This document shows, one piece after another, positions 11,660 through 31,514 of a stretch of 64,000 nucleotides of DNA. The notes under the pieces are model-generated. The model did no database searches. It worked only from the letters and a program-made list of their open reading frames with translations, and was not told the origin of the DNA. The DNA is from Candidatus Sungiibacteriota bacterium (GTDB lineage Bacteria > Patescibacteriota > Minisyncoccia > Sungbacterales > HO2-52-23), in the NCBI GenBank assembly GCA_016206285.1, contig JACQRW010000024.1:1376-65375 (forward strand), written 5' to 3'. The position numbers were made by a program, and so were the translations under genes. Every line of letters begins with the position of its first letter. The stretch's first letter is position 1.

Positions 11660-13384
11660 CTATAGTATCTCCTTTTGATAACACTGTTTGCAATAGACGA
11701 TTGGCGCTTCCGCTTCGGTATAGTTGGTTTCAAAATCAGCGCCGCAGAGTTTGCAGACCCGCGAAATGAGCCGTAAATCCCTCACCCATTGGTTAAATTT
11801 CGCTTCAATCCTGCAAAACGGGCACTGCCGCGGAAGCGGAAAATTTCTCTCGCGCAAAAATTTGAATTCAGCCGGAATAATTTTAAATCCTCTTTCACAT
11901 ATACTGCATTGAAGTACTTCGTTCAAGATTGAATCATCCGCATCTTTAATATGATCGGGGATATCCGCCGTCTTCAGGGTAATATGATGCCGCCCTATTT
12001 TGGCTTCCTTGTATCGGTATCCGTTTTCTTCTATGTCTTCCTGCGCGAGCGGGAAAAAACCGTTTGCAATGGTCTCATTATATGCATAGGGCGACAATGC
12101 GACCGGGAAAAATTCTCCATAGCCGTATAGCCTCCCCCGTGTATCCTGATACGGCATTTCTTTCATATGTGCGATGATTTTTTCGCGCAGAGTAAAATAC
12201 TCTTCCTTTGTATACCGTTTATTCAGAATAACATACTCTCCTTTTCGCGCCGACACGCACCCGAAATAATTCGAGCCGCCTATTGAATCTACCGAGTACT
12301 CGGCGTTTACCGCGTTAATCCCGGTACTCAAACAAAACTTGAGTCCGGAACTATTCTCGCCCACATTGCAGCATTCATACGACAAGGCCAGATTGTTGCC
12401 CCAGCTGAATATATCATAGCAATCTTTTATCGGCGGGTCATACAGCATAAAAAGATACTTTGAATCCTCGGCGCCGTTTACCTCAAAGCACTGGGTACAA
12501 TTTCTGGATCGAAATACATGAGAACCCGTCGAATTGACGGAAAACTCCTCCTGAACCGGTTTTGGAGGAAGCGTCTTCCAGTGATCTTCCGCAAGCCGCT
12601 GTACCTCCTGATAGGTCTGGTACGAGCCAAGGTCCCACCGGGCAATTTCCTTGAAGTAATCATCTTTTGAATACGCTTTATTGAAGACATAATACTGTTT
12701 GTTGCGCAGATTAGCGGATGCAAAGCAATTCTGACAATTAAATGAATCTTTCAAGAATGCGCAATCAACCGAATCAGTCACCTGGCTTCTTAACCCTGCG
12801 CATCGGCTGTTTTTATACGAGTGCATCGAATCATAACATAAATCGGAAGAAACCATTGCAGACGAATCCAAGGTGTCTTTTACATGATTTAAAAAGAACC
12901 CGTATGCTGAATTTTCAACGAAATCCGCCATAAACAGCAGGTATGCATTCTTCAAATGCCCCGCAAGGTTGTTATAGAAGGAATTGACCATCGTAGAAGC
13001 ATCAATCCTCAACGCCGCCAAAGGCACCTCATGCAAAAGGCCGTTGAATTGTTCGAAAAACGGACGCGAGAAATCATAGTCGCGGCCATATGTCATGGGA
13101 TCCCATTGGTCCGACCACCAACATGAAGTGCAATAAACCCGATATCGCGCATCCGGAGGATACGTTGAAATAATATCTTTCTTGCAAAGATCGCAAAGCC
13201 GCTGATACAGATGAAAGATGTTGAAAAATGCCAGCCTCCGCTGCAATCTGCACTTCGGACAAAACGTGGGCGGCGGCACCTGCATCTTTTCATAAAACAC
13301 AAAATCCTCCGGCTCGATGGTGAAGGGATTTTTGCAATTTTGGCAGGGCTTGTCCTGAGCTTGTCGAAGGATTTCGGGGTTCAT
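11660..13384 (-). CDS. Cys-rich zinc-ribbon repeat protein, paralog A of a 10-copy tandem family (unnamed family). Start trimmed to MNPEILRQAQDKPCQNC, which overlaps the upstream stop as ATGA.
   Basis: N-terminal CQNCxxPF..PEDFxFYEK..VPxPTxCPxCR, internal CxxCFxC..LRNKQYYxFNKxYSKxxY repeats, C-terminal CxxC..FKIIPAEFKFLRERNFPLP..CPFCR and ...YCKQCYQKEIL. SD AGGAGG lies within the last codons of paralog B. Confidence 0.75.
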   Translation of the reverse strand: MNPEILRQAQDKPCQNCKNPFTIEPEDFVFYEKMQVPPPTFCPKCRLQRRLAFFNIFHLYQRLCDLCKKDIISTYPPDARYRVYCTSCWWSDQWDPMTYGRDYDFSRPFFEQFNGLLHEVPLAALRIDASTMVNSFYNNLAGHLKNAYLLFMADFVENSAYGFFLNHVKDTLDSSAMVSSDLCYDSMHSYKNSRCAGLRSQVTDSVDCAFLKDSFNCQNCFASANLRNKQYYVFNKAYSKDDYFKEIARWDLGSYQTYQEVQRLAEDHWKTLPPKPVQEEFSVNSTGSHVFRSRNCTQCFEVNGAEDSKYLFMLYDPPIKDCYDIFSWGNNLALSYECCNVGENSSGLKFCLSTGINAVNAEYSVDSIGGSNYFGCVSARKGEYVILNKRYTKEEYFTLREKIIAHMKEMPYQDTRGRLYGYGEFFPVALSPYAYNETIANGFFPLAQEDIEENGYRYKEAKIGRHHITLKTADIPDHIKDADDSILNEVLQCSICERGFKIIPAEFKFLRERNFPLPRQCPFCRIEAKFNQWVRDLRLISRVCKLCGADFETNYTEAEAPIVYCKQCYQKEIL

Positions 13385-15138
13385 AAAATTTCCTCCTGAT
13401 AACACTGTTCGCAATAGATAATTTCTTTTCGATCTGGCGCGTAAGAGGTCAGAAAGGCGTTTGCACATGCTGCGGTACCGTGGGGATGCGCGCCTTGATT
13501 TTGGTATGCGGCATTGTACGATTGTTGGCCGGCACATTGGCATGTTCGCTGATAAAATTTCGGCTGGTTGCGATATTTCGTGCGCTCAATAAATCGGCAG
13601 TTGTGGCAGATACGCGGAATCGGAAGCGTCATACGACGGTAAAACTCAAGCTCCATGGGAATCAGGCGAAACGCCTTGTTGCATGATGCACACTTAATAA
13701 CTTCTTTGAGAATATCATCGCCGATGTCGTTGATGTGATCGGGCAGGTTTTGCGCGTCCACCGTGGTTTTGAACTCGCGCGTCTCGGGCTCCCGCCAGAC
13801 GTACTTTTTTCGTATCGCTTCTTCTTTGGTCAGCGGGAAAAAGTCGTTTGCGAGCGTTTCGTTATACGCAAAAGGAGAAAACTCCGGCGGAAAGAACTCG
13901 CCGTAACGATACACCCTTCCCTGCTGGTCGGTAAACGGCATCTCATTCATGTGCCTGATAATTTTGTCGCGCAAAACAAAATACTCCTCTTGCGTATATT
14001 GCTTGTTAAAAATACAGTATGACTTTTTCCGCAACCCCACGCAGCCAAAGAGATTATTGGATGACATGCACTTAAACGAATATTCGATGCCGCGATCCGC
14101 CGGCCAGCAATCCATGGTAAACTTCAAGCTACTGCACCCGCTTCCGGAAACCAGCACCTCATACATAAGTTCGCTGTGCTCGCCCCAGATGGTGAAGTCA
14201 TACGAGTCATAAACCCCAAGTACCACTCCCTGAGAGTATTTTACATTTTCCGCATCAGCTACATTAAAACTCTCATGAACATTTTTACCGGAGGTAATCA
14301 TATCGCCGGATACGTTGACATTGTGCACGCCCGCCATAAATTTGCAGGGTAGAGACAGAGAAAACTGCCGCACCTGTTTTTTGATCTCCTCAAGCGACTG
14401 GTGCGATCCAAGGCCGAATTGATCGAGTTTCGCAAAATAATCCTCGCGGGAATACGGCCGGTTAAAAATATAGTATTGCTTGTTGCGCAGATTCGCGCAT
14501 CCGAAGCAGTTGGAACAGCCCATGCAATCACGTGAAAACCAGACATCATGGCATTTCTCGCAACGGTTGGAAAAACGCGTCTGATATGAATCAACGACAC
14601 TGGTGCACTCATAACAGAATTCATTGCGCGCAAGCGTGGTACAATCGAGAGAGTCTTTCATATTATTCGCATCACTTACGTACGCGCACCGCTCGCAGCT
14701 GCCAAGATTAAAACAGAGGTAACAATCTTTGAGGTTGCTTGCCCCATGCACATAGTCTGAATTGATCAGATTGATCACGCTCCGGCTCACCCATGGCACA
14801 TCGTACATGAGCGTTTTAAACTGTTCGAAAAACGGCCGGGAAAAGTCATACTCGCGGCCATAATCCATCGGATCCCATGCGTCTGACTGCCAATACTCAT
14901 CGTTATAAATTTTTGCCTGCACCTGCGGTGGAAACTCCGAAAAAATATCTTTGCCCGATATCTCGTCTTTATGCCGGAACAGCTGCCGCTCATTTTCAAA
15001 CAGCATTCTCCGAATCATCCGGCACTCCGGACACCACGTCGGCGCAGGCACCTTGATCTTCTCGTAAAATGCAAAATCCTCCGGTTTAATAGTGAACGGC
15101 TGGCTGCAGTTTTGACAGGTGCGGGTTTCTTGATTCAT
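13381..15138 (-). CDS. Cys-rich zinc-ribbon repeat protein, paralog B
   Basis: 585 aa starting MNQETRTCQNCSQPFTIKPEDFAFYEKIKVPAPTWCPECR and ending ...YCEQCYQEEIL. About 65% identical to paralog I at the N-terminus; start ATG overlaps the hicA stop (ATGA). Confidence 0.8.
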   Translation of the reverse strand: MNQETRTCQNCSQPFTIKPEDFAFYEKIKVPAPTWCPECRMIRRMLFENERQLFRHKDEISGKDIFSEFPPQVQAKIYNDEYWQSDAWDPMDYGREYDFSRPFFEQFKTLMYDVPWVSRSVINLINSDYVHGASNLKDCYLCFNLGSCERCAYVSDANNMKDSLDCTTLARNEFCYECTSVVDSYQTRFSNRCEKCHDVWFSRDCMGCSNCFGCANLRNKQYYIFNRPYSREDYFAKLDQFGLGSHQSLEEIKKQVRQFSLSLPCKFMAGVHNVNVSGDMITSGKNVHESFNVADAENVKYSQGVVLGVYDSYDFTIWGEHSELMYEVLVSGSGCSSLKFTMDCWPADRGIEYSFKCMSSNNLFGCVGLRKKSYCIFNKQYTQEEYFVLRDKIIRHMNEMPFTDQQGRVYRYGEFFPPEFSPFAYNETLANDFFPLTKEEAIRKKYVWREPETREFKTTVDAQNLPDHINDIGDDILKEVIKCASCNKAFRLIPMELEFYRRMTLPIPRICHNCRFIERTKYRNQPKFYQRTCQCAGQQSYNAAYQNQGAHPHGTAACANAFLTSYAPDRKEIIYCEQCYQEEIL

Positions 15139-15356
15139 ATATTTTCAAAGTCTTCTTCGCGCAAATGCGATTGTCTCACGATTGACCGAAATGTGCCATA
15201 CGGAATTTCCCTTTTGTTCATCGGAACGATAACCGTATGTATCCCAGCCACAACTTTCCGGCGATACTTCGCGTGGCTTCCGCGCTGGGAGACAAAAACA
15301 AAGCCCCTGAATTCAAGGACTTTGACAATATACTGCGAAGAATACAATTTAGGCAT
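15135..15356 (-). CDS. hicA: HicA-family toxin embedded in the paralog array
   Basis: 73 aa with IVKVLEFRGFVFVSQRGSHAKYRRKVVAGIHTVIVPMNKREIPYGTFRSIVRQSHL, a textbook HicA signature. 8-nt overlap with the upstream hicB; ATGA overlap with paralog B. Confidence 0.75.
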   Translation of the reverse strand: MPKLYSSQYIVKVLEFRGFVFVSQRGSHAKYRRKVVAGIHTVIVPMNKREIPYGTFRSIVRQSHLREEDFENI

Positions 15357-15570
15357 ATTGGAACGCCTTTTTCACGATGGAGGGAGAGCGTATCTCCTGA
15401 ATTTTCCGCGGCACATCTTCGAGATACAGTTCAAATGCTTCCTGAAGATTTTTGATTGCTTCTGATTTGGTCTTGCCGAAACTTGAGACATCGGCGTTCA
15501 GACATTGAGCCACATAATACTTGCCCTCTTTCCATACAATAGAGATAATATTGATCTTTTTCATACGCAT
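15349..15570 (-). CDS. hicB: HicB-family antitoxin (short form, 73 aa). Start trimmed to MRMKKINI; the longer ORF 15349..15921 on the track runs antisense-frame through paralog C and is not credible.
   Basis: ISIVWKEGKYYVAQCLNADVSSFGKTKSEAIKNLQEAFELYLE matches the HicB/UPF0150 core; lies directly upstream of hicA. Confidence 0.7.
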   Translation of the reverse strand: MRMKKINIISIVWKEGKYYVAQCLNADVSSFGKTKSEAIKNLQEAFELYLEDVPRKIQEIRSPSIVKKAFQYA

Positions 15571-15595
15571 ATAATAGCACGTTACGGAAATTTGT

Positions 15596-17374
15596 TCAAA
15601 CGACCTCGCTTTGATAACATTGCTCGCAATAGACGATTTCGGGTCTGTCGGGAGCATAAGAGGTCTGGAACTCGTTGGAGCAGGGAGCATCACCGTGCGC
15701 GTGTCCGGTCTGATTCTGGTATACTCCGTTTGCAGACGATTTACCAGCGCACTGGCAGAAACGATGCCAGAGTTCAAATGGATTACGGAAAGCCAGACGG
15801 GCGGCATTGCGGCACAGGAAACATCGCCTCGGAATCGGGAGCGACATTTTACGGTAAAACGCAAGTTCCTGCGGGATAATACGGTAATTTCTCGAACATG
15901 CCCCGCAGACCAGAATTTCATTCGTGATCGAATCGGAAATGTTCCGAATACTGTCCGGCAGATCGGATAATGCGATGGTTTCTTTCCCCGTAGTTAGCTG
16001 CAAAGAATCGCGCCATTGAAAATCTTTGGCATGCGCATCTTCCTCCGCAAGGGGATGATACATCTGGGCCACGGTCTCGTTGTATCCGAAACGCGAGAGA
16101 CGGGCCGGAAAAAATTCTCCCCACTCTCCGGTTGTTTTCATGTGCTCGATAATCCTGTTCTTGAGCTTTTCGTACTCTTCTTTTGAATACTGCTTGTTGA
16201 AAATACAGTACTCGCCCTTCTTCAGACCGACGCAGCCAAACAGATATTTGGAAGAATGACAGCTGTCGCAATACGTCACTTCCATGTTCTTCCACGAGTA
16301 GAACGAAAAAAAATTGCGGTACGACTGGTCCGGCGTAAGCGCTTCGTAGCACTGGTTAATCTCTCCGGCAACAAGAATATCATAGCTATCCTTGGAAGCT
16401 TCGCCATTCTCGAAGTACTTGGAGTCCTCCGCATTGAACGCATTAAAAACATAGTGACAATTTTTTGAATTGATAAGATCGTCCCCGATCGAGGCAACGC
16501 AATTTTTTAGGTTTGCATATCGACGAGGATACTTCATAATAAACTCACCGAATTCTTTTTTCGCCCGTTCTCTGCCGTTGTGCGTATCAAGACGATACTC
16601 CGCGATGATCCGTTTATACTCTTCTTCCGAGTATTGCTTATTTTTTACGTAGAAGCGCTTATGACGCAACCCGATAGATAGAAAACAATCCGACGAGTCG
16701 CGGCAGTCATAACAGAAATGCATATCTTTGACGCTGAACGAGTAGTATATATTTGTGGAACGATAACACTGCTGTGTACAGATGCTTTCATAGCTAAGCT
16801 CACAATCACCAAAGCTGCTCATTGCGTCAACAACTTCTTTTGCTTTGATCACTTCATGGCCGTATAAGCTATCTTCGAGTTTCCATGCCAACAAGACCAT
16901 ATAGCAATTTCTGCCAAACGAGAAATCATGCGTATATTGACAATTCACGCTTCCAATGCCGTCATCATTAATAAGCGCGAGCGCCGGCACGCGGTTTTGC
17001 AGTTCAACAAATTGTTCGAAAAACGGACGGGAAAAATTAAAGTCAGCCGCGTAATCTTTCGCATCCCACTGGTCCGACCACCAGCACTTATTACAATAGA
17101 CGGGAAACCTTTTGTCCGGAGCGTACAGCGACACGATCTGCTTTTTGCAAAGATCGCATGTCCGCGAGTAAAAATTAAAATCATTGCGCCACGCCATCCG
17201 CCGTTGTCTGCGGCATTTGGGGCAAAATGTCGGCGCAGGCACCTTGATCTTCTCGTAAAACGCAAAATCCTCCGGCTCAATGGTGAACGGTTTGCTGCAA
17301 TTCTGGCAGGGCTTGTCCTGCCCTCGACTCGAGCTCGGGCCGAGAGTAGCTTGTCGAAGGATTTCGAGGTTCAT
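15596..17374 (-). CDS. Cys-rich zinc-ribbon repeat protein, paralog C. Start MNLEILRQA..., with a 9-aa insertion TLGPSSSRG relative to paralog A.
   Basis: Same domain layout as the other paralogs, ending ...YCEQCYQSEVV. ATGA overlap with the paralog D stop at 17371-17374. Confidence 0.8.
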   Translation of the reverse strand: MNLEILRQATLGPSSSRGQDKPCQNCSKPFTIEPEDFAFYEKIKVPAPTFCPKCRRQRRMAWRNDFNFYSRTCDLCKKQIVSLYAPDKRFPVYCNKCWWSDQWDAKDYAADFNFSRPFFEQFVELQNRVPALALINDDGIGSVNCQYTHDFSFGRNCYMVLLAWKLEDSLYGHEVIKAKEVVDAMSSFGDCELSYESICTQQCYRSTNIYYSFSVKDMHFCYDCRDSSDCFLSIGLRHKRFYVKNKQYSEEEYKRIIAEYRLDTHNGRERAKKEFGEFIMKYPRRYANLKNCVASIGDDLINSKNCHYVFNAFNAEDSKYFENGEASKDSYDILVAGEINQCYEALTPDQSYRNFFSFYSWKNMEVTYCDSCHSSKYLFGCVGLKKGEYCIFNKQYSKEEYEKLKNRIIEHMKTTGEWGEFFPARLSRFGYNETVAQMYHPLAEEDAHAKDFQWRDSLQLTTGKETIALSDLPDSIRNISDSITNEILVCGACSRNYRIIPQELAFYRKMSLPIPRRCFLCRNAARLAFRNPFELWHRFCQCAGKSSANGVYQNQTGHAHGDAPCSNEFQTSYAPDRPEIVYCEQCYQSEVV

Positions 17375-19164
17375 ACTATTTCTGTTTGATAACACGTCTC
17401 GCAATAGACGATTTCGGGTCTGTCGGGAGCATAGGAGGTCTGGAAGTTGTTTGGGCAGCGCTCTCCCATATGATGCGCATGCTCCGATGAATTCTTATAG
17501 ACTTGATTATCACACGCGCACTGTCGTTGCCATTTTTTCAACACCGGGCTTCTTTGCAGCGTCCGTTCACGATGACGGCAATAAAAACATTTGCGCGGTA
17601 ACGACAATTTCATATTTCGATAAAACTCCAGTTCCGATGCAGTGATGCGAAATGCCTTTGTGCAGTTATGCTGCTGCGCTTCCTTCTGATTATTGTCCCA
17701 ATTCTCGCAAAGAATCGTTTCTTTCAATAGAGAGTCAGGCACATCATTGATATGATCAGGAAGCCCCTGCCAGGACATCGTAGTGAGATAATCTTTCACC
17801 GCAGGATCCCGCCACAAAAATCCTCTTTTCACAGCTTCAACTTGGCTGAGCGGCATATACTCCTGGACCACGGATTCATTGTACGCATAGGGACAAAGCT
17901 CGGCCGGAATGAATTCTCCATATGCATACTCTCGCCCCCTCGCATCGCGATACGGCATGGCATTCATATGCTCTTTTATCTTTATAAGAAGCTTTTCATA
18001 CTCTTCTTTGCTATATTGTTTGTTCAAAATACAATATGATTTGTTTCGCAGACCAACGCATCCAAACAGATTGTTTACCGATGGCGAGCATGAAAACGAA
18101 TATTCGACATCATAACTGTCAATATACACAAGCACTGAAAACTTGATGTTTGAAGCGTTATATCCGACATTATTGCACTCATAGATTTTTTCCGCATTCC
18201 ATCCGAAGAGATCGTAATCATAGCAATTTTTGGGCCCGAAAGGAAGTTTAATAAAGGAGCAAAACCGACTATCCTCTCCGTCCGCCACCATATATGAATC
18301 AAGGACATTCCTGCTATGATACACATAGTCTCCGGAAACATTTTGATTGTGCGACCCGTGCATGAAGCGCACCGGAAACATCTGGAAAGCTTCGCGTGCT
18401 TTCTTTTTAACTTCGAGGAGACTTTGGTGCGATCCAAGATCAAATTCAGCAATTTTCTTGGAATACTCTTCCGGAGAATACTGCATATTGAAGATGCAAT
18501 GCGACTTATTTCGCAACCCGACGCAGCCGAAACAATCGGTACAATTTATGCAATCTTTGCAAAATACGACATTATTGCAGTCCTCGCAGTTGCTCGAATA
18601 CAACACCCCGTAGCATTTTACGCAGTCAAAACATTCGTAACAAAGTTCGCAAAAATCAACGGACAAAATATCGAAACAGTTTCTCGCTTGGTTGAGAGCA
18701 ACGCCGTAAGACGAATTTTCTGTGAAGTCCGCATCGAAAAGCATGTAGCATTCTTTCAAGTTGCTGCAGTTCATGCAGTATTCGCTCCTCACATTATTGA
18801 GAAAAGACCGGCTCGGCCACGGGACGGTTTGTATGAGTTCTTTCAGCTGTTCGAAAAAAGGCCGTGAAAAATCGTACTCGTTGCCGTATTGCATGGGATC
18901 CCATTGATCCGACCACCAGTAATCACGGTCATATACCTTGACCGGGGCGTTGGGAGAAAACATGGAAAAGATATCTTTTCCGGTCGCATCGCATTTCCGC
19001 TTATAAAAAATGTTCTCGTTTCGCCAGATCATCCTGCGCTGAAACCTGCACTCCGGACACCACGTCGGCGGCGGCACTTTGATCTTCTCATAAAACTCAA
19101 AGTCCTCCGGTTTGATGGTGAACGGCTTTTTGCAATTCTGACACTGTTTGATTTCTTGGTTCAT
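17371..19164 (-). CDS. Cys-rich zinc-ribbon repeat protein, paralog D (start trimmed to MNQEIKQCQNC)
   Basis: The ORF track extends to 19317, but the conserved N-terminus begins at the ATG at 19164, 8 nt after the paralog E stop. Ends ...YCETCYQTEIV. Confidence 0.75.
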   Translation of the reverse strand: MNQEIKQCQNCKKPFTIKPEDFEFYEKIKVPPPTWCPECRFQRRMIWRNENIFYKRKCDATGKDIFSMFSPNAPVKVYDRDYWWSDQWDPMQYGNEYDFSRPFFEQLKELIQTVPWPSRSFLNNVRSEYCMNCSNLKECYMLFDADFTENSSYGVALNQARNCFDILSVDFCELCYECFDCVKCYGVLYSSNCEDCNNVVFCKDCINCTDCFGCVGLRNKSHCIFNMQYSPEEYSKKIAEFDLGSHQSLLEVKKKAREAFQMFPVRFMHGSHNQNVSGDYVYHSRNVLDSYMVADGEDSRFCSFIKLPFGPKNCYDYDLFGWNAEKIYECNNVGYNASNIKFSVLVYIDSYDVEYSFSCSPSVNNLFGCVGLRNKSYCILNKQYSKEEYEKLLIKIKEHMNAMPYRDARGREYAYGEFIPAELCPYAYNESVVQEYMPLSQVEAVKRGFLWRDPAVKDYLTTMSWQGLPDHINDVPDSLLKETILCENWDNNQKEAQQHNCTKAFRITASELEFYRNMKLSLPRKCFYCRHRERTLQRSPVLKKWQRQCACDNQVYKNSSEHAHHMGERCPNNFQTSYAPDRPEIVYCETCYQTEIV

Positions 19165-19172
19165 ACGAAGAT

Positions 19173-20921: not shown

Positions 20922-20930
20922 AGGTTACTT

Positions 20931-22625
20931 TCAATCAAGTTCTTTTTGATAGCATTTCGCACATAAAATCTTCTGGCCCGCAAGCGAGGACGGATACTCG
21001 ACGGAAGCCCCGCATTGTTCACACACCCCATGCACACTCTTCAATTCCGCCATCCAGAGGTTTAATTTTTCCTTGATCCGGCACAGAGGACACCGGCGCG
21101 GCAGCGGCAGCGAGCGCCGTTTCAAAAAATCCAGCTCCCGGGGAATAATCCGAAAGCCGCGTCGGCATTCGGCACAGCGTATAATCTCTTTCAAAATCCG
21201 CTCGCCTGCATCTTTGATATGATCCGGCAACTCGGAGGCGTCGCGATCAATATGGTGTTCGGTTTTTTCTTCTTTTGTCCATACAAAACCTTGCGTACGC
21301 GCCTCATCTTCAGTACGCGGAAACATATTGTGTGCAAGAGATTCATTGTAGCCGTGGGGACTGAATTCCGGGGGAAAAAATTCACCGTAGAAGTATTTTC
21401 GTCCGACACGGTCCTCAAAGGGAACGCGGCGCATCTCGTCCTTGATTTTCCCGACAAGCGAATGATATTCCTCTTTCGAATATTGCTTGTTCAAAATGCA
21501 GTAGTGCTGGCTGCGAAGCGAGACACACCCAAAGGTATTGGAAGATCCCACGCCGCTTAATACCGTGTACTCCATGTCATACGCTCCCTCAAAACAGAGA
21601 TTACCAAAACGGATGTTTGCCGCGTTGCGCCCGACCAATCCCTCGTAGCAAGACTGGGCTTCTCCCCAAGTGGATATATCGTATGAATCTTTCACATCGC
21701 GCACCATGAAAAGATACCGGGAATCTTCTCCCCGCGTCACCTCATAACAATCTTTGCAATTTTTGGATTGGTGAACGTAATTTCCCGTGCAGTTCACCGA
21801 GAATTCGTCAAACCGGACTTTAGGCGGGTACTGCTGCCAATGAGATTCCGCCGCCTTTTTCGCCTCCATGTATATGCGATACGAGCCAAAATCCCATTTT
21901 TTCATCTCCTCAGCATACTTTTCCTTGGAATAAGGCTTATTGAAAATATGATATTGCTTGTTTCGCAAATTTGCAGAAGCAAAACAATCCGTGCAATGAT
22001 GACAATCCCGCAAAAACGAACAATACGCGGACTCATACACCTGATTGCGCAATCCCGTACCGTAACTCACCTTATAGATGTGCGCGGAGTCATAGCAGGT
22101 ATCACACTGCTGTATGAGCGAACAATCATAGGTGCTCTTTGAGCGAAACACATACACGCCATACGCGCAATCTTCCACTTCGTCGGTCTGCGAGAGAAGA
22201 TATGAGTCCTTCACTTTTCCGGCGTAATTATTGTAGGGCGAGTTCTGCGCGGTATCAAGATCAACCGCCAGACCTATGAGCGGAACGCTTTTCCATAACT
22301 CGCGAAACTGCTCGAAAAACGGCTTGGAAAAGTCATAGTCCCGGCCATAATCCCTCGCGTCCCACTTGTCGGACCACCAGCACTGCGGACAATACACCAC
22401 AAACGGAGCATCAGGATGGTAGTTGGTGATAAACGGCTGCTTACAAAGACCGCATATCCGGTGATAGAGGTGGATCAAATTCAAAAACGAAAGCCGCCGC
22501 TGCAGCCGACATTGGGGACACCACGTCGGCGCAGGCACCTGCATCTTCTCGTAAAACGCAAAATCCTCCGGCTCGATGGTAAAGGGATTTTTGCAATTCT
22601 GGCAGGTTTTGGTTTCTTTATTCAT
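20931..22625 (-). CDS. Cys-rich zinc-ribbon repeat protein, paralog F (same subfamily as A; start trimmed to MNKETKTCQNC)
   Basis: N-terminus matches paralog A through FLNLIHLYHRICGLC...YCPQCWWSDKWD. ATGA overlap with the paralog G stop at 22622-22625. Confidence 0.8.
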   Translation of the reverse strand: MNKETKTCQNCKNPFTIEPEDFAFYEKMQVPAPTWCPQCRLQRRLSFLNLIHLYHRICGLCKQPFITNYHPDAPFVVYCPQCWWSDKWDARDYGRDYDFSKPFFEQFRELWKSVPLIGLAVDLDTAQNSPYNNYAGKVKDSYLLSQTDEVEDCAYGVYVFRSKSTYDCSLIQQCDTCYDSAHIYKVSYGTGLRNQVYESAYCSFLRDCHHCTDCFASANLRNKQYHIFNKPYSKEKYAEEMKKWDFGSYRIYMEAKKAAESHWQQYPPKVRFDEFSVNCTGNYVHQSKNCKDCYEVTRGEDSRYLFMVRDVKDSYDISTWGEAQSCYEGLVGRNAANIRFGNLCFEGAYDMEYTVLSGVGSSNTFGCVSLRSQHYCILNKQYSKEEYHSLVGKIKDEMRRVPFEDRVGRKYFYGEFFPPEFSPHGYNESLAHNMFPRTEDEARTQGFVWTKEEKTEHHIDRDASELPDHIKDAGERILKEIIRCAECRRGFRIIPRELDFLKRRSLPLPRRCPLCRIKEKLNLWMAELKSVHGVCEQCGASVEYPSSLAGQKILCAKCYQKELD

Positions 22626-24367
22626 GCCATTTCTGCCTGGTAACACTCCTCGCAATAGATGATTTCTTTTCTTTCAGGAGCGTAACTTGTCTCAAATTCA
22701 TTTGGACATTGATTCAAACCATGAACATGGGAGCTTGCGTTAGCGTATATCCCATTGGCGCTCTTCTGCCCGGAGCAATGGCAATGTACTCGCCAGAGCT
22801 TGCGGGGATTGCGCATTGCCATGCGATCTTGTCTGCGACATGCAGGACACTTTGCAGGTATCGGCATGTTCATTTTCCGATAGAATGCCAGCTCCTCCGG
22901 CAGAATACGAAAAGCAGTAGTACAATGAAGATTTTTTTCTTTCGCGCCAGGGTCATCTTGCGAAACGCACCCGATGACTTTTTCAAGAATGCTTTCATTA
23001 GTATCTCCAATCGTTTCCGGAATGTCTTCCGGACGCAGAGTAATGCCATACCCGCGTTCAGGCCGCTCGTACCACCGCATCCCCTTTGACAGAACATCAG
23101 TTTTTGTAAGCGGAAAATAATCCTGTGCTACTGTTTCGTTGTATGCAAACAACGTACGGGTTGCGGGGAAAAATTCTCCCCACTCTTTGGTCTCTTTCAT
23201 GTGTGCGATGATTTTTTCAAGAAGTGCTGCATATTCCTCTTTGGTATACTGTTTGTTGAAGATACAGTACTCGGCTTTTTTCAGTCCAACACAGCCGAAA
23301 AGATCATGGCTGTTGGTACAGAGTTCGGAATAAAACGAGTTAAGCACCTGAACACTCTTAGTTACTCCGATAGAACTTTGCGCCGTGACGCCTTCATTTT
23401 CATATCCAAGCTCAACCCATGCCTCCGTGCAGTCAATGCTGTCTTTTGAATAATTGGTGTCCTGGCAATAGCGCAGATTCTCCGCCTCACTGGCGTGGAA
23501 AACCGCAAAGGAGTTTTTGATGTCATGGATGTAATCTCCTACGGAATGAAGTGTGTTTCTGCCGTGATAACTTTTATGCGGGTATCTCATCGCAAGCTCC
23601 ACGAGCAATATCTTCTCTTTTTGTATATTCGCGCGGCTGAATACAAATTCAGAAAGCCGCTTCTCGTATTCTTCGCGCGTCAGCTGCTCGTTTTTCCAGC
23701 AATATGATTTGTTCCGTAATCCATAGCATCCGAAACACGATGTGCATCCTCTGCAATCCTTCAAAAAATAACTTGTGGTCGTGTCGGCGCAGTCTTCAAG
23801 ATACGCGGAACGACTGCAATTGATACTATTAAGGGATTCGTACAGTAGTTCGCTTTGGAGGATGTCATAGCAGTCAACGGATTCGCGTGTTTTATCCAAC
23901 CAGTATCCGTAGAGGCAGTTTTCGGAATATGCCGTTGAGACGCACATGTAGCAGTTTTTGTTACTCACCGATTGATTTGTATATTCGGAATTGGTGCTAT
24001 GCCAATTTGCCATTGCAATATGCGGAACTTTCAGGCGAAATGCATGGAATTGTTCAAAGAACGGCTGCGAAAAATCAAAATCGCGGGCGTATGCATACGG
24101 ATCCCACCCATCCCCCCACCAGCACGAGTGGCAATATACCGGTCCCGGATATTCAGAATTATACAGAGAGACGGTATCCTTGGCGCACAGATCGCATTTC
24201 CGGCGGTAAAAATTCCATTCATTCCGGTTCGTAAGCCGCCGCTGATACCGGCACTCCGGACAAAACGTGGGCGGCGGCACTTTGATCTTCTCATAAAACG
24301 CAAAGTCCTCCGGTTCAATAGTAAAGCCAGTTTGGCAGTTTTGGCATTGTTTTTGTTCTGTCGGCAT
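22622..24367 (-). CDS. Cys-rich zinc-ribbon repeat protein, paralog G. Start chosen at MPTEQKQCQNC by alignment with the other paralogs; an alternative start 24 nt upstream at 24391 (MSWSQYYT...) is possible.
   Basis: Same architecture, ending ...YCEECYQAEMA. First gene of the G-F-E-D-C sub-operon, after the divergent intergenic region 24392-24535. Confidence 0.7.
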   Translation of the reverse strand: MPTEQKQCQNCQTGFTIEPEDFAFYEKIKVPPPTFCPECRYQRRLTNRNEWNFYRRKCDLCAKDTVSLYNSEYPGPVYCHSCWWGDGWDPYAYARDFDFSQPFFEQFHAFRLKVPHIAMANWHSTNSEYTNQSVSNKNCYMCVSTAYSENCLYGYWLDKTRESVDCYDILQSELLYESLNSINCSRSAYLEDCADTTTSYFLKDCRGCTSCFGCYGLRNKSYCWKNEQLTREEYEKRLSEFVFSRANIQKEKILLVELAMRYPHKSYHGRNTLHSVGDYIHDIKNSFAVFHASEAENLRYCQDTNYSKDSIDCTEAWVELGYENEGVTAQSSIGVTKSVQVLNSFYSELCTNSHDLFGCVGLKKAEYCIFNKQYTKEEYAALLEKIIAHMKETKEWGEFFPATRTLFAYNETVAQDYFPLTKTDVLSKGMRWYERPERGYGITLRPEDIPETIGDTNESILEKVIGCVSQDDPGAKEKNLHCTTAFRILPEELAFYRKMNMPIPAKCPACRRQDRMAMRNPRKLWRVHCHCSGQKSANGIYANASSHVHGLNQCPNEFETSYAPERKEIIYCEECYQAEMA

Positions 24368-24535
24368 AGTATAGTATTGCGACCATGACACCCTCTCACC
24401 GCATGATACCTGTTAATTTTCGCAAACTCAAGGATTAAAAATACTTATAAGAGCTGTGGACAATCATGCTTTACATTGCGCAGTACATGGAGTATACTGA
24501 AACTTAGATTATACGAATAACTTAATCATAAGAAT

Positions 24536-25369
24536 ATGAAAAAAACATTATCTTTTATTGCTGGTTTTTCGATCCTTGCACAACTCGCTCCAATTGCAGT
24601 TTTGGCGCAAACTCCGGGCGAAACAAGACCGGAACGGCGGCAGCAAATGCAGGAAAAACGCCGGGAAAATAGGCAAGAAGTGCAGGGGGAAAAAGCGGAG
24701 CTTCGCGAAGAAACCAAGCTAAAGCGCGAAACACTCAAAACCGATATCAGACAGAAAGCGGAAACATTGCGCCAGCAAATCCAGGAAAGAGCAAAAACCT
24801 TCCGGGAAGCAACCACAACCGTGGAGCAAAAAAAGGCATTCCGCGCTGAAATAAAGGAGAAACGGCAAACGTTTAAAACCGAGGTCAAAGAAAAACGCGA
24901 AGAGTTCCGGCAAGAAACAAAAAAACGCAGGGAAGAATTCAAAAAACATGTTGGCGAGAAGCGAGCGGAAAACATAGAACGGTTTTTTGACCAGATGGTC
25001 AAAAAAGTTGAATCGGCCATTGACCGGCTGAATCAGTCCGCCGATAAAATTGAGGCGCGAATCGACCAAGCAGAAGACAATGGGAAAAATGTAAGCGCGA
25101 TTCGTACGGAACTTGAGGCAGCTCGCGTGAAAATCGCCGATGCCGAAACCGCACTTGCCACTGCCAAAGCAAAATATGCCGAAACGGCTTCAAGCCAAGA
25201 CCCCAAAACCGCATTCGCGAATGTGCGTGCGGCAATGAAAATCGTTTCTGACAAAGTGAAGAACGCGCATCAAGCACTGGTAGCAGTTATCAGTTCACTG
25301 AAAGGAGTCGCCGGCAAAACTACTTCTGCTCCTCCGGCGCCAGCGCCTACGTCGACACCAAGCCAATAA
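24536..25369 (+). CDS. Secreted, highly charged coiled-coil repeat protein (K/R/E-rich), function unknown
   Basis: Signal peptide MKKTLSFIAGFSILAQLAPIAVLAQT, followed by ~200 aa of repetitive RxxxxKxE heptad-like sequence and a Pro/Ala/Thr-rich C-terminal tail. Confidence 0.6.
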   Translation: MKKTLSFIAGFSILAQLAPIAVLAQTPGETRPERRQQMQEKRRENRQEVQGEKAELREETKLKRETLKTDIRQKAETLRQQIQERAKTFREATTTVEQKKAFRAEIKEKRQTFKTEVKEKREEFRQETKKRREEFKKHVGEKRAENIERFFDQMVKKVESAIDRLNQSADKIEARIDQAEDNGKNVSAIRTELEAARVKIADAETALATAKAKYAETASSQDPKTAFANVRAAMKIVSDKVKNAHQALVAVISSLKGVAGKTTSAPPAPAPTSTPSQ

Positions 25370-25393
25370 AAGTAACTATAATTCAACATATTT

Positions 25394-25672
25394 ATGAATG
25401 AAACCATGCAATCAAATCAATCGCAGTTGCCCCCGGAGAAAAAAACAACATCGCGACTTTTGACTATCGTTGTGCTTGGCGCGGTGATCGTACTTGCCAT
25501 TGTCGTTTATCTCTTTTCTTCGGGCTCTTCGACTCCTTTGCCTTCGGAAGAAACAACGGCAGTCCCGGCCCCGACAGAAGAAGCAGATGCGCTTGCACAA
25601 GAGGTGCAAAGTATGAATCTGGAAGGTCTTGATGCCGAACTTGGTGATATTGAAAAAGAACTCGCACAGTAG
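25394..25672 (+). CDS. Small single-pass membrane protein, hypothetical
   Basis: 92 aa with one TM helix (LLTIVVLGAVIVLAIVVYLF) and an acidic C-terminal tail; followed by a terminator. Confidence 0.45.
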   Translation: MNETMQSNQSQLPPEKKTTSRLLTIVVLGAVIVLAIVVYLFSSGSSTPLPSEETTAVPAPTEEADALAQEVQSMNLEGLDAELGDIEKELAQ

Positions 25673-25690
25673 CATCTTCCAAAACATCAA

Positions 25691-25724
25691 AATACCGCGC
25701 CCTCTTACGGGGCGCGGTATTTTT
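25691..25724. terminator. Bidirectional rho-independent terminator between the convergent genes at 25394-25672 (+) and paralog H (-)
   Basis: ATACCGCGCCC-tcttac-GGGCGCGGTAT followed by TTTTTG on the plus strand and by a T-rich run on the minus strand. Confidence 0.65.
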
Positions 25725-25728
25725 GTCT

Positions 25729-27510
25729 TTACACAACTTCGCTCTGATAACACTGCTCACAGTATATGATCTCCGGACGGTCGGGCGAGTAGGAGGTTTG
25801 AAATTCATTGGTACAAGGCATATCACCATGAAAATGTTCTATATCATTGACATATGCTCCGTTTGTGGATTTTGAACCCCCGCACTGACAGCTCCGCAAC
25901 CAAAGCCGGACCGGATTACGCTGTCGCACCCGGCTATAATGTCGGCAACTGGGACAAAGTTTTGGGACCGGTATCTTCATCTGCCGGTAAAATTGCAGCT
26001 CCGGCGCGATAATGCGAAAAGCTTTGGTGCATTGCTCCTCGCACTGGCCTTTATGCCCGCATTCGATAATTTCTTTCAGAATCGAGTCGTCTATATTAGT
26101 GATATCGTCCGGAATGTCTTCGAATGTAAGCGTGGGGGTATGCGTTTTTTGATCCGGATCGCGCCATGAGAACCCCTGCGCCAATGCTTTTTCTTTGGTA
26201 AGAGGGTACGCCTCCTGGGCCAATGTTTCGTTGTAGGCAAACGGGCTGATTTCAATCGGGAAAAACTCCCCGTAGGCGTAACTACGGCCCTGCGTGCCCG
26301 CGTAGGGCATATCCTGCATATGTTGAATCAATCTGGGAACCAGTTCTTTGTATTCCACTTCAGAATATTGTTTATTCAGGATGCAGTATTGCTTGTTTCT
26401 CATACCAATACAGCCAAACAGATTGCTCACATGGTGGCAATTATATGAATAGTAGATATCATGCGAATTAAAAACGAATCGGGAGAAAAAAACTCTGCTG
26501 CCCGGGTACACGCTCGAACTTTCGTATACCAATTCCGTGTTCAAGCCCGCCCGATCCAGATCAAAACAATCTTTGATACGCGAGTAGGCAAGCACATCGT
26601 ACGCGCAATCTTCTGCGCCGCCAAAAACATCAAAACATTGGCGGCAGTTTTTTGCCTGTTCCAAATTGTCGCCAGTGGAGTTGGCAGTCTGAATCAGGCG
26701 GGCAAAACGGCGCGGAAAATTGACGGAAAAATTTGCAAACTTCTGTTTCAATTCTGTGATTTGCTTCGCATCACCCGAATTTATTTCCTTGAGTCGTTTT
26801 TGATACTCCTCTTTTGTAAGCTGCTCATTCCAAAAGCAGTAGGATTTATTCTTTAAATTCACGCATCCGAAACAATCATGGCAGTTTTTGCAGTTAAACA
26901 AGAAAGCGCTGTCATAACAATCATCGCAGTAACGGCTATACCTCAAACGCATACACGAAATGCAATCCACGGTCTCATAGTTGAACTCGCTCTTGGAAAC
27001 CCAGTAGGCATCCACGCACTCTTTGCAGTTAAAGACATAGGTAGAGTAAAGCGTGTTTTCATTAAAATCGCCCCCGAATACGAGATAGCAGTTTTTATTG
27101 CCCTCGGTTATACTGCAATACTCGCTGTTTATGGGGTTAATGTTCATGACCGCAATATCCGGCACCTCGCGCCATAACTCCTGGAGCTGTGTAAAAAACG
27201 GCTTGCTCCAGTCAATCTCTTTCCCATAATCCAGAGGATTCCAAGCATCTCCCCACCATGCTTGGTGATCATAGGTGCGCTGCGGATTGTCCGGCGAAAA
27301 GACCGAGATGGATTCTTCGGCATGTCCCGGTGCTTCGCATTTTTTCTTATACAAAGTCCGCTCGTTGCGAAACGCCAATCGGCGTTGGAGCCGGCAATTA
27401 AAACAAAACGTAGGCGGCGGCACGTTTATCTTCTCGTAAAACGCAAAGTCCTCCGGCTCGATGGTGAACGAGTTTTTGCAGTTTTGGCAGATTTTGGTTT
27501 CGGAATTCAT
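25729..27510 (-). CDS. Cys-rich zinc-ribbon repeat protein, paralog H (start trimmed to MNSETKICQNC)
   Basis: Ends ...YCEQCYQSEVV. ATGA overlap with the paralog I stop at 27507-27510, and SD-like AGGAAG inside the last codons of I. Confidence 0.8.
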   Translation of the reverse strand: MNSETKICQNCKNSFTIEPEDFAFYEKINVPPPTFCFNCRLQRRLAFRNERTLYKKKCEAPGHAEESISVFSPDNPQRTYDHQAWWGDAWNPLDYGKEIDWSKPFFTQLQELWREVPDIAVMNINPINSEYCSITEGNKNCYLVFGGDFNENTLYSTYVFNCKECVDAYWVSKSEFNYETVDCISCMRLRYSRYCDDCYDSAFLFNCKNCHDCFGCVNLKNKSYCFWNEQLTKEEYQKRLKEINSGDAKQITELKQKFANFSVNFPRRFARLIQTANSTGDNLEQAKNCRQCFDVFGGAEDCAYDVLAYSRIKDCFDLDRAGLNTELVYESSSVYPGSRVFFSRFVFNSHDIYYSYNCHHVSNLFGCIGMRNKQYCILNKQYSEVEYKELVPRLIQHMQDMPYAGTQGRSYAYGEFFPIEISPFAYNETLAQEAYPLTKEKALAQGFSWRDPDQKTHTPTLTFEDIPDDITNIDDSILKEIIECGHKGQCEEQCTKAFRIIAPELQFYRQMKIPVPKLCPSCRHYSRVRQRNPVRLWLRSCQCGGSKSTNGAYVNDIEHFHGDMPCTNEFQTSYSPDRPEIIYCEQCYQSEVV

Positions 27511-29273
27511 GAGATTTCTTCCTGATAACACGATTCGCAGTAGACGATTTCAGGACGGTCGGGAGCATAGGACGTTTCAAAATCATTGGAACACGGCTGG
27601 ACTCCATGAAGATGTGCACCCTCATTTTGATATGCTCCATTTTCGCTTTGCGCCCCGGCACACTGGCAGCGACGGAAATAAAACCGAACCGGATTCCGGC
27701 ATTTCATGCGTTCCCGATGACGACACGCGACACAAAGCCGCGGCAAAGGCAGCGACATGTTCTTTAGAAAATCAAATTCCATCTGGATAATCCGATATGC
27801 CCCTCCGCACGAACCGCATCGGATAACCTCCTTTAACAATGAATCTTCGGCATTGCGGATATGATCGGGCAGATCTTTTGCGTCAATAGTAGCTTCATGT
27901 CCCCTTGCTTCGGAATCATGCCAGGAATATCCCCTTTCCAGTGCTTCGTCTTTTTCCCGGGGAAGAAAATCGCCCGCGATCGTCTCGTTGTACGCAAACG
28001 GCGAAAACTCGGATGGGAAAAATTCACCGTAGCGATATATGTTTCCGCGCGCATCGGTATAGGGCATCTCATGCATATGCCGGATGATTTTCTCGCGAAG
28101 CGCGAAGTAATCCTCTTTTGAGTATTGTTTGTTGAAAATACAGTAGGACTTCTTTTTAAGTCCCACGCAGCCAAAAAGATAGCTGGGAGAAGAGTGACAA
28201 TGCACGGAGTATTCCACGTCGTGGGCGGAAGACCAGCAGTTCCAGCTGAATTTTACATTGTGACACGCATTTCCCGTTTGCAACGCCTCGTACATCAACT
28301 CCGATGTCTCGCCCCATAATGTATAGTCGTAGCTGTCCTTTGTCGCACCCAAATATACACCCTGACAATAACGCGAGTCCTCAATTTGCGTCGCATTATA
28401 ACAATACTTGGCATTTTTTCCGTATGAGACAAAATCTCCAGACACGCTGGCATTATGCCAGCCGGACATATATTTATAGGGCAGCGAGCGCCAGTGTTTT
28501 GCGACGCGTTCTTTTACCTCCACGAACGACTGATATGAGCCCTGATCGAAAATTCTTTTCAATTCTTCGCCATATGCTTCCCGGGTATACGGCTTGTTGA
28601 AAATGTGATACTGCTTGTTGCGAAGATTCGCAGATCCGAAACAATCTGAACATCCGACGCAATCCCGCGAGAACCATACGTTATGGCACTGTTCCAGATT
28701 ATGCGAATAAAAAACACGGTTGCAGTCGTATAGAAAAGACCCTTCATAGCACAGTTCATCGCGCATTCCCGTGGTCAGGTCAAAAGTACTTTTTAAATAC
28801 CCGGCATCAATGGCGTATGCCGCGTCTTCGGAGTAGCCGGTACTGAAGCAGAGATAGCAATTTTTAAGATAATAAGCGTTATTTGAATAGTCGGAGTTAA
28901 TGGCATTCGAAATATTTCTGCTTGCCCATGGAACCGCATACATTAACTCTTTGAACTGCTCAAAAAACGGCCGCGAAAAGTCATAATTCCTTCCGTAGTC
29001 CATCGGATCCCATGCATCGGACCACCAGTAATCTTTCTCATAGATTTTTATCGGCACATGCGGCGAAACCCAAGAAAATATCTCTTTTCCGGAAATATCA
29101 TCCCTTTTCCTGTACAAAACGCGCTCATTGCGAAACAAACACCGACGAATAAGTCTGCACTCCGGACAAAACGTAGGCGGCGGCACGTTTATCTTCTCGT
29201 AAAACACAAAGTCCTCCGGTTCGATAGTGAACGGCCTTTTGCAGTTTTGGCAGATGCGGGTTTCGGGGTTCAT
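27507..29273 (-). CDS. Cys-rich zinc-ribbon repeat protein, paralog I (first gene of the I-H sub-operon)
   Basis: 588 aa starting MNPETRICQNCKRPFTIEPEDFVFYEKINVPPPTFCPECR and ending ...YCESCYQEEIS. Same subfamily as paralog B. Confidence 0.8.
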   Translation of the reverse strand: MNPETRICQNCKRPFTIEPEDFVFYEKINVPPPTFCPECRLIRRCLFRNERVLYRKRDDISGKEIFSWVSPHVPIKIYEKDYWWSDAWDPMDYGRNYDFSRPFFEQFKELMYAVPWASRNISNAINSDYSNNAYYLKNCYLCFSTGYSEDAAYAIDAGYLKSTFDLTTGMRDELCYEGSFLYDCNRVFYSHNLEQCHNVWFSRDCVGCSDCFGSANLRNKQYHIFNKPYTREAYGEELKRIFDQGSYQSFVEVKERVAKHWRSLPYKYMSGWHNASVSGDFVSYGKNAKYCYNATQIEDSRYCQGVYLGATKDSYDYTLWGETSELMYEALQTGNACHNVKFSWNCWSSAHDVEYSVHCHSSPSYLFGCVGLKKKSYCIFNKQYSKEDYFALREKIIRHMHEMPYTDARGNIYRYGEFFPSEFSPFAYNETIAGDFLPREKDEALERGYSWHDSEARGHEATIDAKDLPDHIRNAEDSLLKEVIRCGSCGGAYRIIQMEFDFLKNMSLPLPRLCVACRHRERMKCRNPVRFYFRRCQCAGAQSENGAYQNEGAHLHGVQPCSNDFETSYAPDRPEIVYCESCYQEEIS

Positions 29274-31407: not shown

Positions 31408-31514
31408 ATATCAAAGAATAGCACAAAATCAGGACAAGCAAAAATTGACTGAATCGGCAGGATATGTCATGTATAAAGACAATCTGGCCTTTTAAAAATG
31501 AAAAGGAGCATAAA

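Follow-up and report, generated by a model that had tools for sequence, protein, structure and literature searches.

What do the Cys-rich paralogs that fill nearly a quarter of a 64,000-nucleotide stretch of a Candidatus Sungiibacteriota genome do, and with which other proteins might they work? The stretch, hereafter the window, spans positions 1,376 to 65,375 of contig JACQRW010000024.1 (GenBank assembly GCA_016206285.1). A total of nine full-length genes of one family, all on the minus strand, were located at window positions 11660 to 29273 by an open reading frame (ORF) listing combined with a six-frame search with a family hidden Markov model (HMM), which scored each paralog at 574 to 997 bits. 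The original prediction, made from the letters of this DNA, counted ten, while its own labels, A to I, amount to nine; the six-frame HMM search found no tenth copy or pseudogene remnant in the gaps of the array. The family is large and lineage specific and is tied by two-way gene-neighborhood evidence to an equally unexplained ATPase module; any function that we propose for it is a hypothesis.

The family is uncharacterized by sequence, structure, and literature and has neither a name nor a domain model, and the earlier failure to recognize any characterized family was borne out. Pfam and NCBIfam scans of the paralogs returned nothing beyond sub-threshold finger matches and one spurious Med15 KIX match, a profile search of PDB sequences with the family returned nothing, and a Foldseek comparison of the predicted structure with the PDB returned nothing at E ≤ 0.001. 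Full-text literature searches turned up no account of the family, nor one of DUF8128, a protein that recurs beside it (below). Public records name family members "hypothetical protein"; the paralog I protein is 100% identical to one of them, NCBI HY617_03860 of Candidatus Sungbacteria. A single family representative, P0249 (731 amino acids [aa]), has an N-terminal GNAT acetyltransferase domain, which is probably a one-off (a rare fusion or a gene-call merge).

Linkage to ATPases is the strongest functional lead. We examined a family-centered sample of 80 genome loci, kept out of at least 588 family loci in GTDB species genomes. Neighbor clustering identified a soluble P-loop ATPase as the dominant neighbor (31 to 32 loci), with matches to TrwB_AAD_bind, T4SS-DNA_transf, TraG-D_C, and DUF87. 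The short form of this ATPase (~485 to 505 aa) is 69 to 81% identical across the group, and the long form (~650 to 830 aa) adds a zf_Tbcl_2/TIGR04272 finger and then a disordered tail. The finger of the long form scores above cut-off for both models (zf_Tbcl_2, E = 6e-13, 48.7 bits; TIGR04272, E = 2e-13, 49.8 bits), and the terminal finger of the family has sub-threshold matches to the same finger type. In 31 of the 80 loci we found 48 VirD4-like ORFs, 47 of them on the family strand; the distance to a family gene is at most 100 nt for 19 of the 48 and at most 500 nt for 33.

The association also holds when the ATPase is taken as the starting point. The short ATPase was used to scan independent JGI/ENA metagenome contigs, which gave 80 loci whose ATPases are close orthologs (≥74% identity) of those picked beside family genes, and family genes were present in 67 of these 80 loci, in 47 of 50 loci of at least 10 kb, and in 23 of 24 of at least 19 kb. 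Loci in the last class hold a mean of 3.25 family copies, and the strand was always the same. Of 130 family proteins in the ATPase-centered loci, 55 resembled window paralog H most closely, as did 12 of the 16 family proteins located just downstream of the long ATPase. In related genomes, the family and these ATPases are linked at the level of gene order, a connection that the original prediction could not have drawn from the window.

According to precomputed annotations, the cassette in a complete, 923-kb Sungiibacteriota genome runs secD, secF, a sigma70_r4/HARE-helix-turn-helix (HTH) gene, DUF8128, a family gene, a GIY-YIG gene, the short ATPase, and the long ATPase with zf_Tbcl_2; the corresponding order on a Jorgensenbacteria contig includes DUF8128, a gene for a 172-aa protein, the short ATPase, and nine family genes, with CutA1 among them. 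DUF8128 carries N-terminal transmembrane (TM) helices and recurs in 14 family-centered and 31 ATPase-centered loci. In two loci it is fused to the ATPase (L027, positions 3169 to 5553; L074, positions 12694 to 15501), and elsewhere the two are separate, adjoining genes. These Rosetta-stone fusions suggest that DUF8128 and the VirD4-like ATPase form one membrane-anchored ATPase. In Nomurabacteria-like genomes, the association is with a chaperone operon, in the order grpE, dnaK, long ATPase, one or more family genes, short ATPase, and dnaJ; ATPase and family genes lie between dnaK and dnaJ in four loci (L021, L024, L072, and L076), with a PaaX-like regulator and a small ArsR-type HTH gene nearby. 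CutA1, a PII-like protein of divalent-ion tolerance, recurs in 7 family-centered and 18 ATPase-centered loci; it stands in or beside arrays at L006, L013, L014, L020, L047, L063, L080, and L084/L085, often directly 3' of the short ATPase. No VirB-type genes were found among the recurrent neighbors of the 80 family-centered and 80 ATPase-centered loci.

To what extent does the architecture of the proteins fit a role beside such an ATPase? From N to C terminus, each protein comprises finger 1, finger 2, a linker helix, two solenoid halves, a GEFFP/YNET segment, finger 3, and a terminal finger (finger 4). This is the domain order originally described, and it is backed by an internal duplication. 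In profile-profile comparisons, finger 1 matched finger 3 (hhalign probability, 99.1%; E = 2e-18), solenoid half 1 matched half 2 (99.8%; E = 4.5e-30), and finger 2 weakly matched finger 4 (61%; E = 8e-5). Each strand-rich solenoid half ends in a cap, C-x2-C-F-G-C...LRNK-x-YCIFNKQYS-x-EEY, and a helix. An AlphaFold2 model of paralog I, built on 65 sequences, was compact and confident (predicted local distance difference test [pLDDT], 87; predicted template modeling score, 0.87), and the N-terminal 120 aa of paralog G modeled alone reached a pLDDT of 92. Fingers 1 and 3, taken at first for zinc ribbons, are modeled not as classical ribbons but as treble clefs composed of a knuckle, a hairpin, and a helix. 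The family models show the treble-clef layout of two CxxC pairs, one at the knuckle and one at the helix N terminus: C8 and C11 lie in the hairpin and C36 and C39 at the helix start (pLDDT > 90 in the models), with Cys conservation of 93 to 97%.

Conservation of the Cys residues was assessed across 185 full-length members from the 80 family-centered loci. The Cys residues of fingers 1, 3, and 4 are retained in 98%, 92%, and 97% of members, respectively, compared to 45% for finger 2. The description of four zinc ribbons does not suit every copy: within the window, finger 2 has four Cys residues in A, C, F, and G and none in B, D, E, H, and I, and paralog E lacks Cys in fingers 1 to 3 while keeping the FxIxPEDxxFYxKIxVPxPT motif and an intact terminal finger. 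Paralog E had been called degenerate. Its ORF is intact, the same pattern of Cys loss occurs in 4 of the 185 members (E included), and its nearest relatives, at 48% (L004) and 45% (L068) identity, are in other genomes, compared to 32 to 36% identity to the other window paralogs. Sequence comparison places E as a conserved Cys-poor subtype, not a decaying copy. Finger 4 has a long form, in which an insertion brings an extra C/H/H site, in 58% of members and in window paralogs B, C, D, G, H, and I. An exact CxxC-x17(-18)-CxxC spacing is found among the window paralogs in A, C, E, and F; the CxxC pairs are separated by exactly 17 residues in fingers 2 and 4 of A and by 18 in finger 4 of E. Zinc binding by the family fingers is predicted from this Cys4 geometry and from distant small CxxC-x17-CxxC (TIGR04272-type) proteins of Methanosarcina mazei, which bind Zn as measured by inductively coupled plasma mass spectrometry (PMC12704099).

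Cys is also abundant outside the fingers, and the window proteins contain 27 to 38 Cys residues each. A CxxCxxCxxC run closes solenoid half 1 in 55% of members, and in paralog D the Cys residues of this half recur at every third residue in a run. Solenoid Cys residues are exchanged for A, T, L, G, V, or S in many members, I, A, and C among them, and the CxxCxxCxxC run itself carries Ser, Ala, or Leu substitutions in I, A, C, and F. Since small or hydrophobic residues take the place of the missing Cys, the alignment suggests that these are core-packing positions and not obligatory ligands. Conserved residues other than Cys are mostly Tyr, in a periodic ladder, and the Arg residues that come directly after each treble clef (R40, R43, R44, R518, R522, and R534), and no conserved catalytic His/Ser/Asp constellation was found in the family alignment. 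The fingers, linker, and solenoid caps vary least, as judged by sequence entropy, which peaks along the solenoids. As first described, the paralogs have no signal peptide or TM segment (hydropathy scan; the N termini are polar) and are predicted to be cytoplasmic.

The family is widespread, and its distribution and copy number across related genomes point to long maintenance. A word-indexed search scored at least 7,980 clusters at 90% identity, and an exhaustive profile search found 5,425 representatives at 50% identity with E ≤ 1e-3, of which 2,322 reached E ≤ 1e-30. Among labeled records, the family is almost entirely from Patescibacteria/Parcubacteria, in agreement with the lineage specificity initially proposed; informative labels include Sung-, Staskawicz-, Nomura-, Giovannoni-, Jorgensen-, Lipton-, and Niyogibacteria as well as Paceibacterota/Minisyncoccia, while "uncultured Candidatus Saccharibacteria" (many of the 80 loci) and "uncultured Gammaproteobacteria" (one) are automated labels that we treated as uninformative. 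Translated searches (tblastn) of phage and plasmid collections gave no family match, and the only match in a scan of IMG/VR was partial and lay at the edge of a contig. The family often forms tandem arrays on a single strand; the largest has 11 copies in 21 kb (L011), several other loci have 7 to 9, and copy number among genomes ranges from 1 to at least 11. In four loci, family copies are split by frameshifts over two or three adjacent ORFs (L003, 6384 to 7695; L029, 1742 to 3532; L041, 498 to 2336; and L020, 19584 to 21320), and these are either pseudogenes or assembly errors.

Pairwise identity among the nine paralogs is 32 to 60%, lower than the 40 to 65% first estimated, with B/I (60%), A/F (52%), B/D (50%), and C/G (46%) as the clearest pairs. 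Every window paralog has a nearer relative in another genome than inside the array (31 such outside relatives for H and 10 for E), and paralog B is 84% identical to its ortholog in another Sungiibacteriota metagenome-assembled genome (MAG; L002). The ratio of nonsynonymous to synonymous substitution rates (dN/dS) for this pair is 0.08. DNA identity between array copies is 60 to 84%, and no recent repeats or gene conversion were detected in the array. The closer relatives elsewhere, the range of DNA identity, and the low dN/dS indicate an old expansion with conserved subtypes, as the original prediction had it. Pseudogenization, which would have counted against that prediction, was not borne out: the nine ORFs are intact, and the genes are functional and under purifying selection.

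We propose that the family proteins are interchangeable clients (cargo), or cargo/ligand adaptors, of a VirD4/TraD-like ATPase machine, and we put the probability of this reading at roughly 0.4. Each protein would form a rigid double beta-solenoid with both ends capped by zinc-stabilized treble-clef fingers. The ATPase module would comprise the DUF8128 membrane protein, the 172-aa TM protein, the short ATPase, and the long finger-bearing ATPase and would stand apart from any type IV secretion system (T4SS). The finger motifs, which hardly vary, and the Arg-rich helices next to them on the C-terminal side might serve as a common docking surface onto the DUF8128/ATPase machine, and the variable solenoid faces might confer paralog-specific specificity; with docking in common and faces that vary, the paralogs would be interchangeable as clients or adaptors. 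Both the physical docking and the cargo or adaptor role are what we infer from these patterns. Since no ATPase gene lies in the window, the nine-gene array would be a satellite repertoire, with the ATPase-linked copy at another site of the same genome, an arrangement seen in the complete Sungiibacteriota genome; homology to ATPase-linked copies is what would extend the model to this array.

Several observations weigh against this proposal. No VirD4-like, DUF8128, or sigma/HARE genes occur in the 64-kb window, and about 60% of the family-centered loci have no ATPase within 10 kb. (An ATPase with the locus-tag prefix of the source MAG, HY617, was not found among the top 120 ATPase homologs.) The ATPase cassette also lies beside the housekeeping genes secDF, dnaK/dnaJ, and cysS, and gene order conserved between small genomes of common descent may simply be inherited, with no functional coupling behind it. 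The reverse test sampled close orthologs and so is not unbiased with respect to all Patescibacteria type IV coupling proteins (T4CPs). Both termini of the proteins are modeled as folded fingers, unlike the disordered tails typical of T4SS substrates. Finally, the ATPases reach 57 bits against NCBIfam VirD4/TraD cut-offs of 250 bits, and because these scores fall so far below the curated cut-offs, their mechanism is itself conjectural.

It is also possible that the proteins handle nucleic acids, an alternative that we consider doubtful but credible. The four fingers with their Arg-rich helices would then bind DNA or RNA, different paralogs would recognize or coat different substrates, and the DUF8128-anchored VirD4/FtsK-like ATPase would be a membrane DNA translocase for uptake or export in nucleotide-auxotrophic cells of the candidate phyla radiation (CPR). 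VirD4/TraD/FtsK-type ATPases are classically DNA pumps, and the neighbor ATPases have weak matches to the DNA-import ATPases CedD/CedB; the conserved Arg residues directly after each treble clef and the presence of the same finger type on the long ATPase would also be consistent with this role. However, the paralogs are neutral to acidic (pI 5.6 to 7.2; net charge, -13 to +1), and Pfam, NCBIfam, and PDB profile searches gave no match to a known DNA- or RNA-binding family. The E subtype, without three of the zinc sites, would fit poorly, and the need for up to 11 diverged paralogs would be left unexplained.

A hetero-oligomeric cytoplasmic scaffold or filament, in which solenoids stack end to end like bactofilins and translationally coupled paralogs co-assemble into a structural element of the ultra-small cell, seems to us distinctly unlikely. 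The beta-solenoid core would suit such an assembly, since its sole structural neighbors, among them curli CsgA and ice-binding proteins, are solenoids that stack, as would the ATGA-coupled gene pairs (below) and the old, conserved paralog subtypes. The range of copy number between genomes argues against a fixed stoichiometry, though, the model places helices and fingers as caps over the solenoid ends, and the linkage to ATPases would go unaccounted for. A role in metal or redox chemistry, in which the Cys ladder of solenoid half 1, a series of CxxC pairs closed by CxxCxxCxxC, would carry electrons or buffer metals by binding Fe-S clusters or several metal ions, is less probable again: the Cys content of the proteins, the frequency of the closing Cys run, and the CutA1 neighbors speak for it, but solenoid Cys residues are replaced in many members in the manner of core-packing positions, their spacing is unlike that of ferredoxins, and Pfam and NCBIfam gave no Fe-S family match. 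A locus for anti-phage or inter-bacterial defence or for variation, one of the roles first suggested, with diversified paralogs as sensors or effectors, is highly improbable, since the paralog array with variable surfaces, the HicB-like ORFs and NYN-domain gene nearby, and the occurrence of HerA/FtsK-type ATPases in some defence systems (with a weak HerA_antiphage match here) are set against a lack of matches in PADLOC (none at E < 0.9 for four paralogs) and PHROGs, near absence from viral, phage, and plasmid collections, strong purifying selection on old orthologous subtypes, no diversification machinery or recent repeats, and a partner ATPase that is conserved at 69 to 94% across the group like a housekeeping gene.

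The array is laid out in several probable transcription units (Table 1). Stop and start codons overlap as ATGA at four junctions (B|A, D|C, G|F, and I|H). At the B|A junction, an AGGAGG Shine-Dalgarno-like sequence lies 9 nt 5' of the ATG of A (region 13385 to 13420, minus strand) and is formed by the conserved C-terminal codons of B (…CYQEEIL, CAG GAG GAA), so the end of one protein and the ribosome-binding site of the next are the same bases. The nine copies were described as a tandem array, and they do share one strand, but the array is not contiguous: it is broken at two places, by a HicB-like ORF and by a pair of plus-strand genes. The latter converge with paralog H on a terminator that closes both the I-H unit and the plus-strand pair; the 277-aa product of the first has a sub-threshold, apolipoprotein-like Pfam match only. 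From these interruptions and terminators, there are likely at least three transcription units, I-H, G-F-E-D-C (possibly with the HicB-like ORF), and B-A, the last possibly extending into a GT2 gene. The longest ORFs of the paralogs are 574 to 648 aa, close to the 575 to 650 aa first reported, but several are upstream over-extensions, and the conserved MN-x-E start gives lengths of 564 to 597 aa. Family coding sequence totals 15.8 kb, or 24.7% of the window, just short of the quarter claimed as a minimum.

Table 1. Coordinates of the array, of the segments of paralog I, and of other features in the window
Feature	Positions	Strand	Description
Paralog A	11660-13384	-	574 aa, short terminal finger
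Paralog B	13381-15138	-	585 aa
Terminator-like hairpin 3' of HicB-like ORF	15324-15299		Hairpin prediction
HicB-like/DUF7387-like small ORF	15349-15570	-	Unrelated insert
Paralog C	15596-17374	-	592 aa, Cys in all four fingers
Paralog D	17371-19164	-	597 aa, richest in Cys (38 Cys)
Paralog E	19173-20921	-	582 aa, Cys-poor subtype
Paralog F	20931-22625	-	564 aa, short CxxC-x17-CxxC-type terminal finger
Paralog G	22622-24367	-	581 aa, every Cys site present; alternative GTG start at 24391
Promoter-like site just 5' of paralog G	24431-24403	-	
277-aa protein	24536-25369	+	Unrelated insert; signal-peptide-like N terminus, Lys/Glu-rich helical body
92-aa protein	25394-25672	+	Unrelated insert; one hydrophobic segment, single TM
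Intrinsic-terminator-like hairpin, bidirectional	25689-25723		Strong; 14- to 15-bp stem, 8 GC pairs
Paralog H	25729-27510	-	593 aa
Paralog I	27507-29273	-	588 aa, HMM 970 bits; first gene of I-H unit
Paralog I, finger 1	29124-29273		Residues 1-50, knuckle-hairpin-helix (modeled treble clef)
Paralog I, finger 2	28989-29123		Residues 51-95, Cys-less, small hairpin finger
Paralog I, linker helix (YDFSRPFFEQF)	28920-28988		Residues 96-118, conserved
Paralog I, solenoid half 1	28488-28919		Residues ~119-262
Paralog I, solenoid half 2	28059-28487		Residues 263-405
Paralog I, GEFFP/YNET middle segment	27834-28058		Residues 406-480
Paralog I, finger 3	27690-27833		Residues 481-528, second modeled treble clef
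Paralog I, terminal finger	27510-27689		Residues 529-588, long C/H form
Second HicB-like ORF	9644-10057	-	Antitoxin type, outside the array
NYN-domain gene	29373-29909	-	Predicted RNase, directly 5' of paralog I
Beta-ketoacyl synthase (KAS) gene	31464-32807	+	Complete
Type IV pilus gene cluster	56177-62883	-	
PilM	56177-57337	-	Within pilus cluster
ORF	57319-59166		615 aa, no Pfam match, within pilus cluster
ORF	59648-60673		No Pfam match, within pilus cluster
ORF	60677-61657		No Pfam match, within pilus cluster
PilC/T2SSF	61654-62883	-	Within pilus cluster

The array is flanked by ordinary chromosomal genes, including those for a GT2 glycosyltransferase, a DUF4015 hydrolase, RF, the NYN-domain protein, GatB, and a ketoacyl synthase. 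The NYN-domain gene, for a predicted RNase, stands between paralog I and gatB, and a second HicB-like antitoxin-type ORF is present in the window outside the array. The ketoacyl synthase gene is complete and merits mention because, to our knowledge, fatty-acid synthesis is usually missing from CPR bacteria. A type IV pilus gene cluster farther along the window contains three sizeable ORFs without a Pfam match in addition to PilM and PilC/T2SSF. A total of 16 tRNA genes are dispersed over the window, in which no rRNA or Rfam families other than tRNA were found.

Parcubacteria/Paceibacteria are among the most abundant uncultivated bacteria and have genomes under 1 Mb. The family occupies ~16 kb of the window, and arrays of at least 11 tandem copies occur in other genomes; its diverged clusters number in the thousands, and selection on it is purifying. 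A family with these traits must matter to the biology of these organisms. Should the family proteins prove to be cargo for, or adaptors of, a new translocation machine, the finding would bear directly on the interaction of episymbiotic CPR bacteria with their hosts; even if their function is structural or related to nucleic acids, the family merits a Pfam/InterPro entry and structural work. The linkage also provides a testable hypothesis in which the partners are defined: a family protein, DUF8128, and both forms of the ATPase. A 2025 survey of 2,918 Patescibacteria genomes found 5,713 VirD4-like T4CPs, of which 148 were near virB4, and suggested exaptation (PMC12102498). The linkage described here offers a partner for these orphan proteins and addresses the question, raised in that literature, of why about two T4CP homologs per Patescibacteria genome lie away from T4SS.

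How does the family compare with known proteins and systems? Its fingers come nearest to the zf_Tbcl and zf_Tbcl_2/TIGR04272 families, with which they share the knuckle-hairpin-helix of the models and the CxxC-x17-CxxC spacing. Fingers 1 and 3 gave weak matches to zf_Tbcl (PF13451) and fingers 2 and 4 to zf_Tbcl_2 (PF23477)/TIGR04272. The best zf_Tbcl match, 15.0 bits for residues 15 to 54 of paralog F, is under the 24-bit gathering threshold, and none was found in the other paralogs; for zf_Tbcl_2/TIGR04272, paralog E scored 18.6 and 17.8 bits and paralog C 14.8 bits, under cut-offs of 27 and 36. Family matches to these models stand at 15 to 19 bits versus gathering cut-offs of 24 to 36, and the families themselves are small stand-alone or repeated domains of no assigned function, with neither a solenoid core nor an eight-segment architecture. 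The DksA/TraR C4 zinc finger and FYVE/PHD/RING treble clefs were also considered near, and the local fold of finger 1 superposed on DksA and TraR at 1.8 to 1.9 Å over 37 to 38 residues. For the core, the beta-solenoid proteins considered near were LpxA/LpxD/GlmU acyltransferases, gamma-carbonic anhydrase, curli CsgA, and insect and plant ice-binding proteins; neither a hexapeptide-repeat profile nor a significant fold match connected the family to left-handed beta-helix transferases or gamma-carbonic anhydrases. Ferredoxin-type 4Fe-4S proteins were considered and rejected, as the family motif, CxxCxxCxxC (complete in 55% of the 185 members), is not the CxxCxxCxxxCP of that group and no Fer4 matches were obtained.

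Among whole systems, T4SS and type VII secretion systems (T7SS) offer a comparison. Both have repertoires of substrates or adaptors: T4SS effectors recognized by VirD4 include the Xanthomonas XVIPCD proteins, and the T7SS ATPases EccC/EssC have adjoining substrate arrays. Unlike these substrates, the family proteins are homologous to no known effector or signal domain, and their cassettes have no VirB or Ess/Ecc channel genes. In the boldest form of our proposal, which we consider unlikely as a whole, the two soluble VirD4-like ATPases would combine with DUF8128, the 172-aa TM protein, and the family proteins into an unrecognized ATP-driven translocation system, with the zinc-finger-capped solenoid proteins as cargo and the arrays as an effector repertoire that episymbionts deliver to, or display towards, their hosts. 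T7SS and T4CP-dependent export would be the functional analogs of such a Parcubacteria/Paceibacteria-specific system, itself without known channel components. The likenesses, drawn as an analogy, are several. The DUF8128-ATPase fusions give the usual membrane-anchored layout of T4CPs. As in T4SS and T7SS, an ATPase of the FtsK/VirD4 superfamily and a membrane partner are encoded beside a variable number of diverged paralogs, which carry no Sec signals, combine a conserved recognition module with a variable part, and occur in further arrays elsewhere in the genome.

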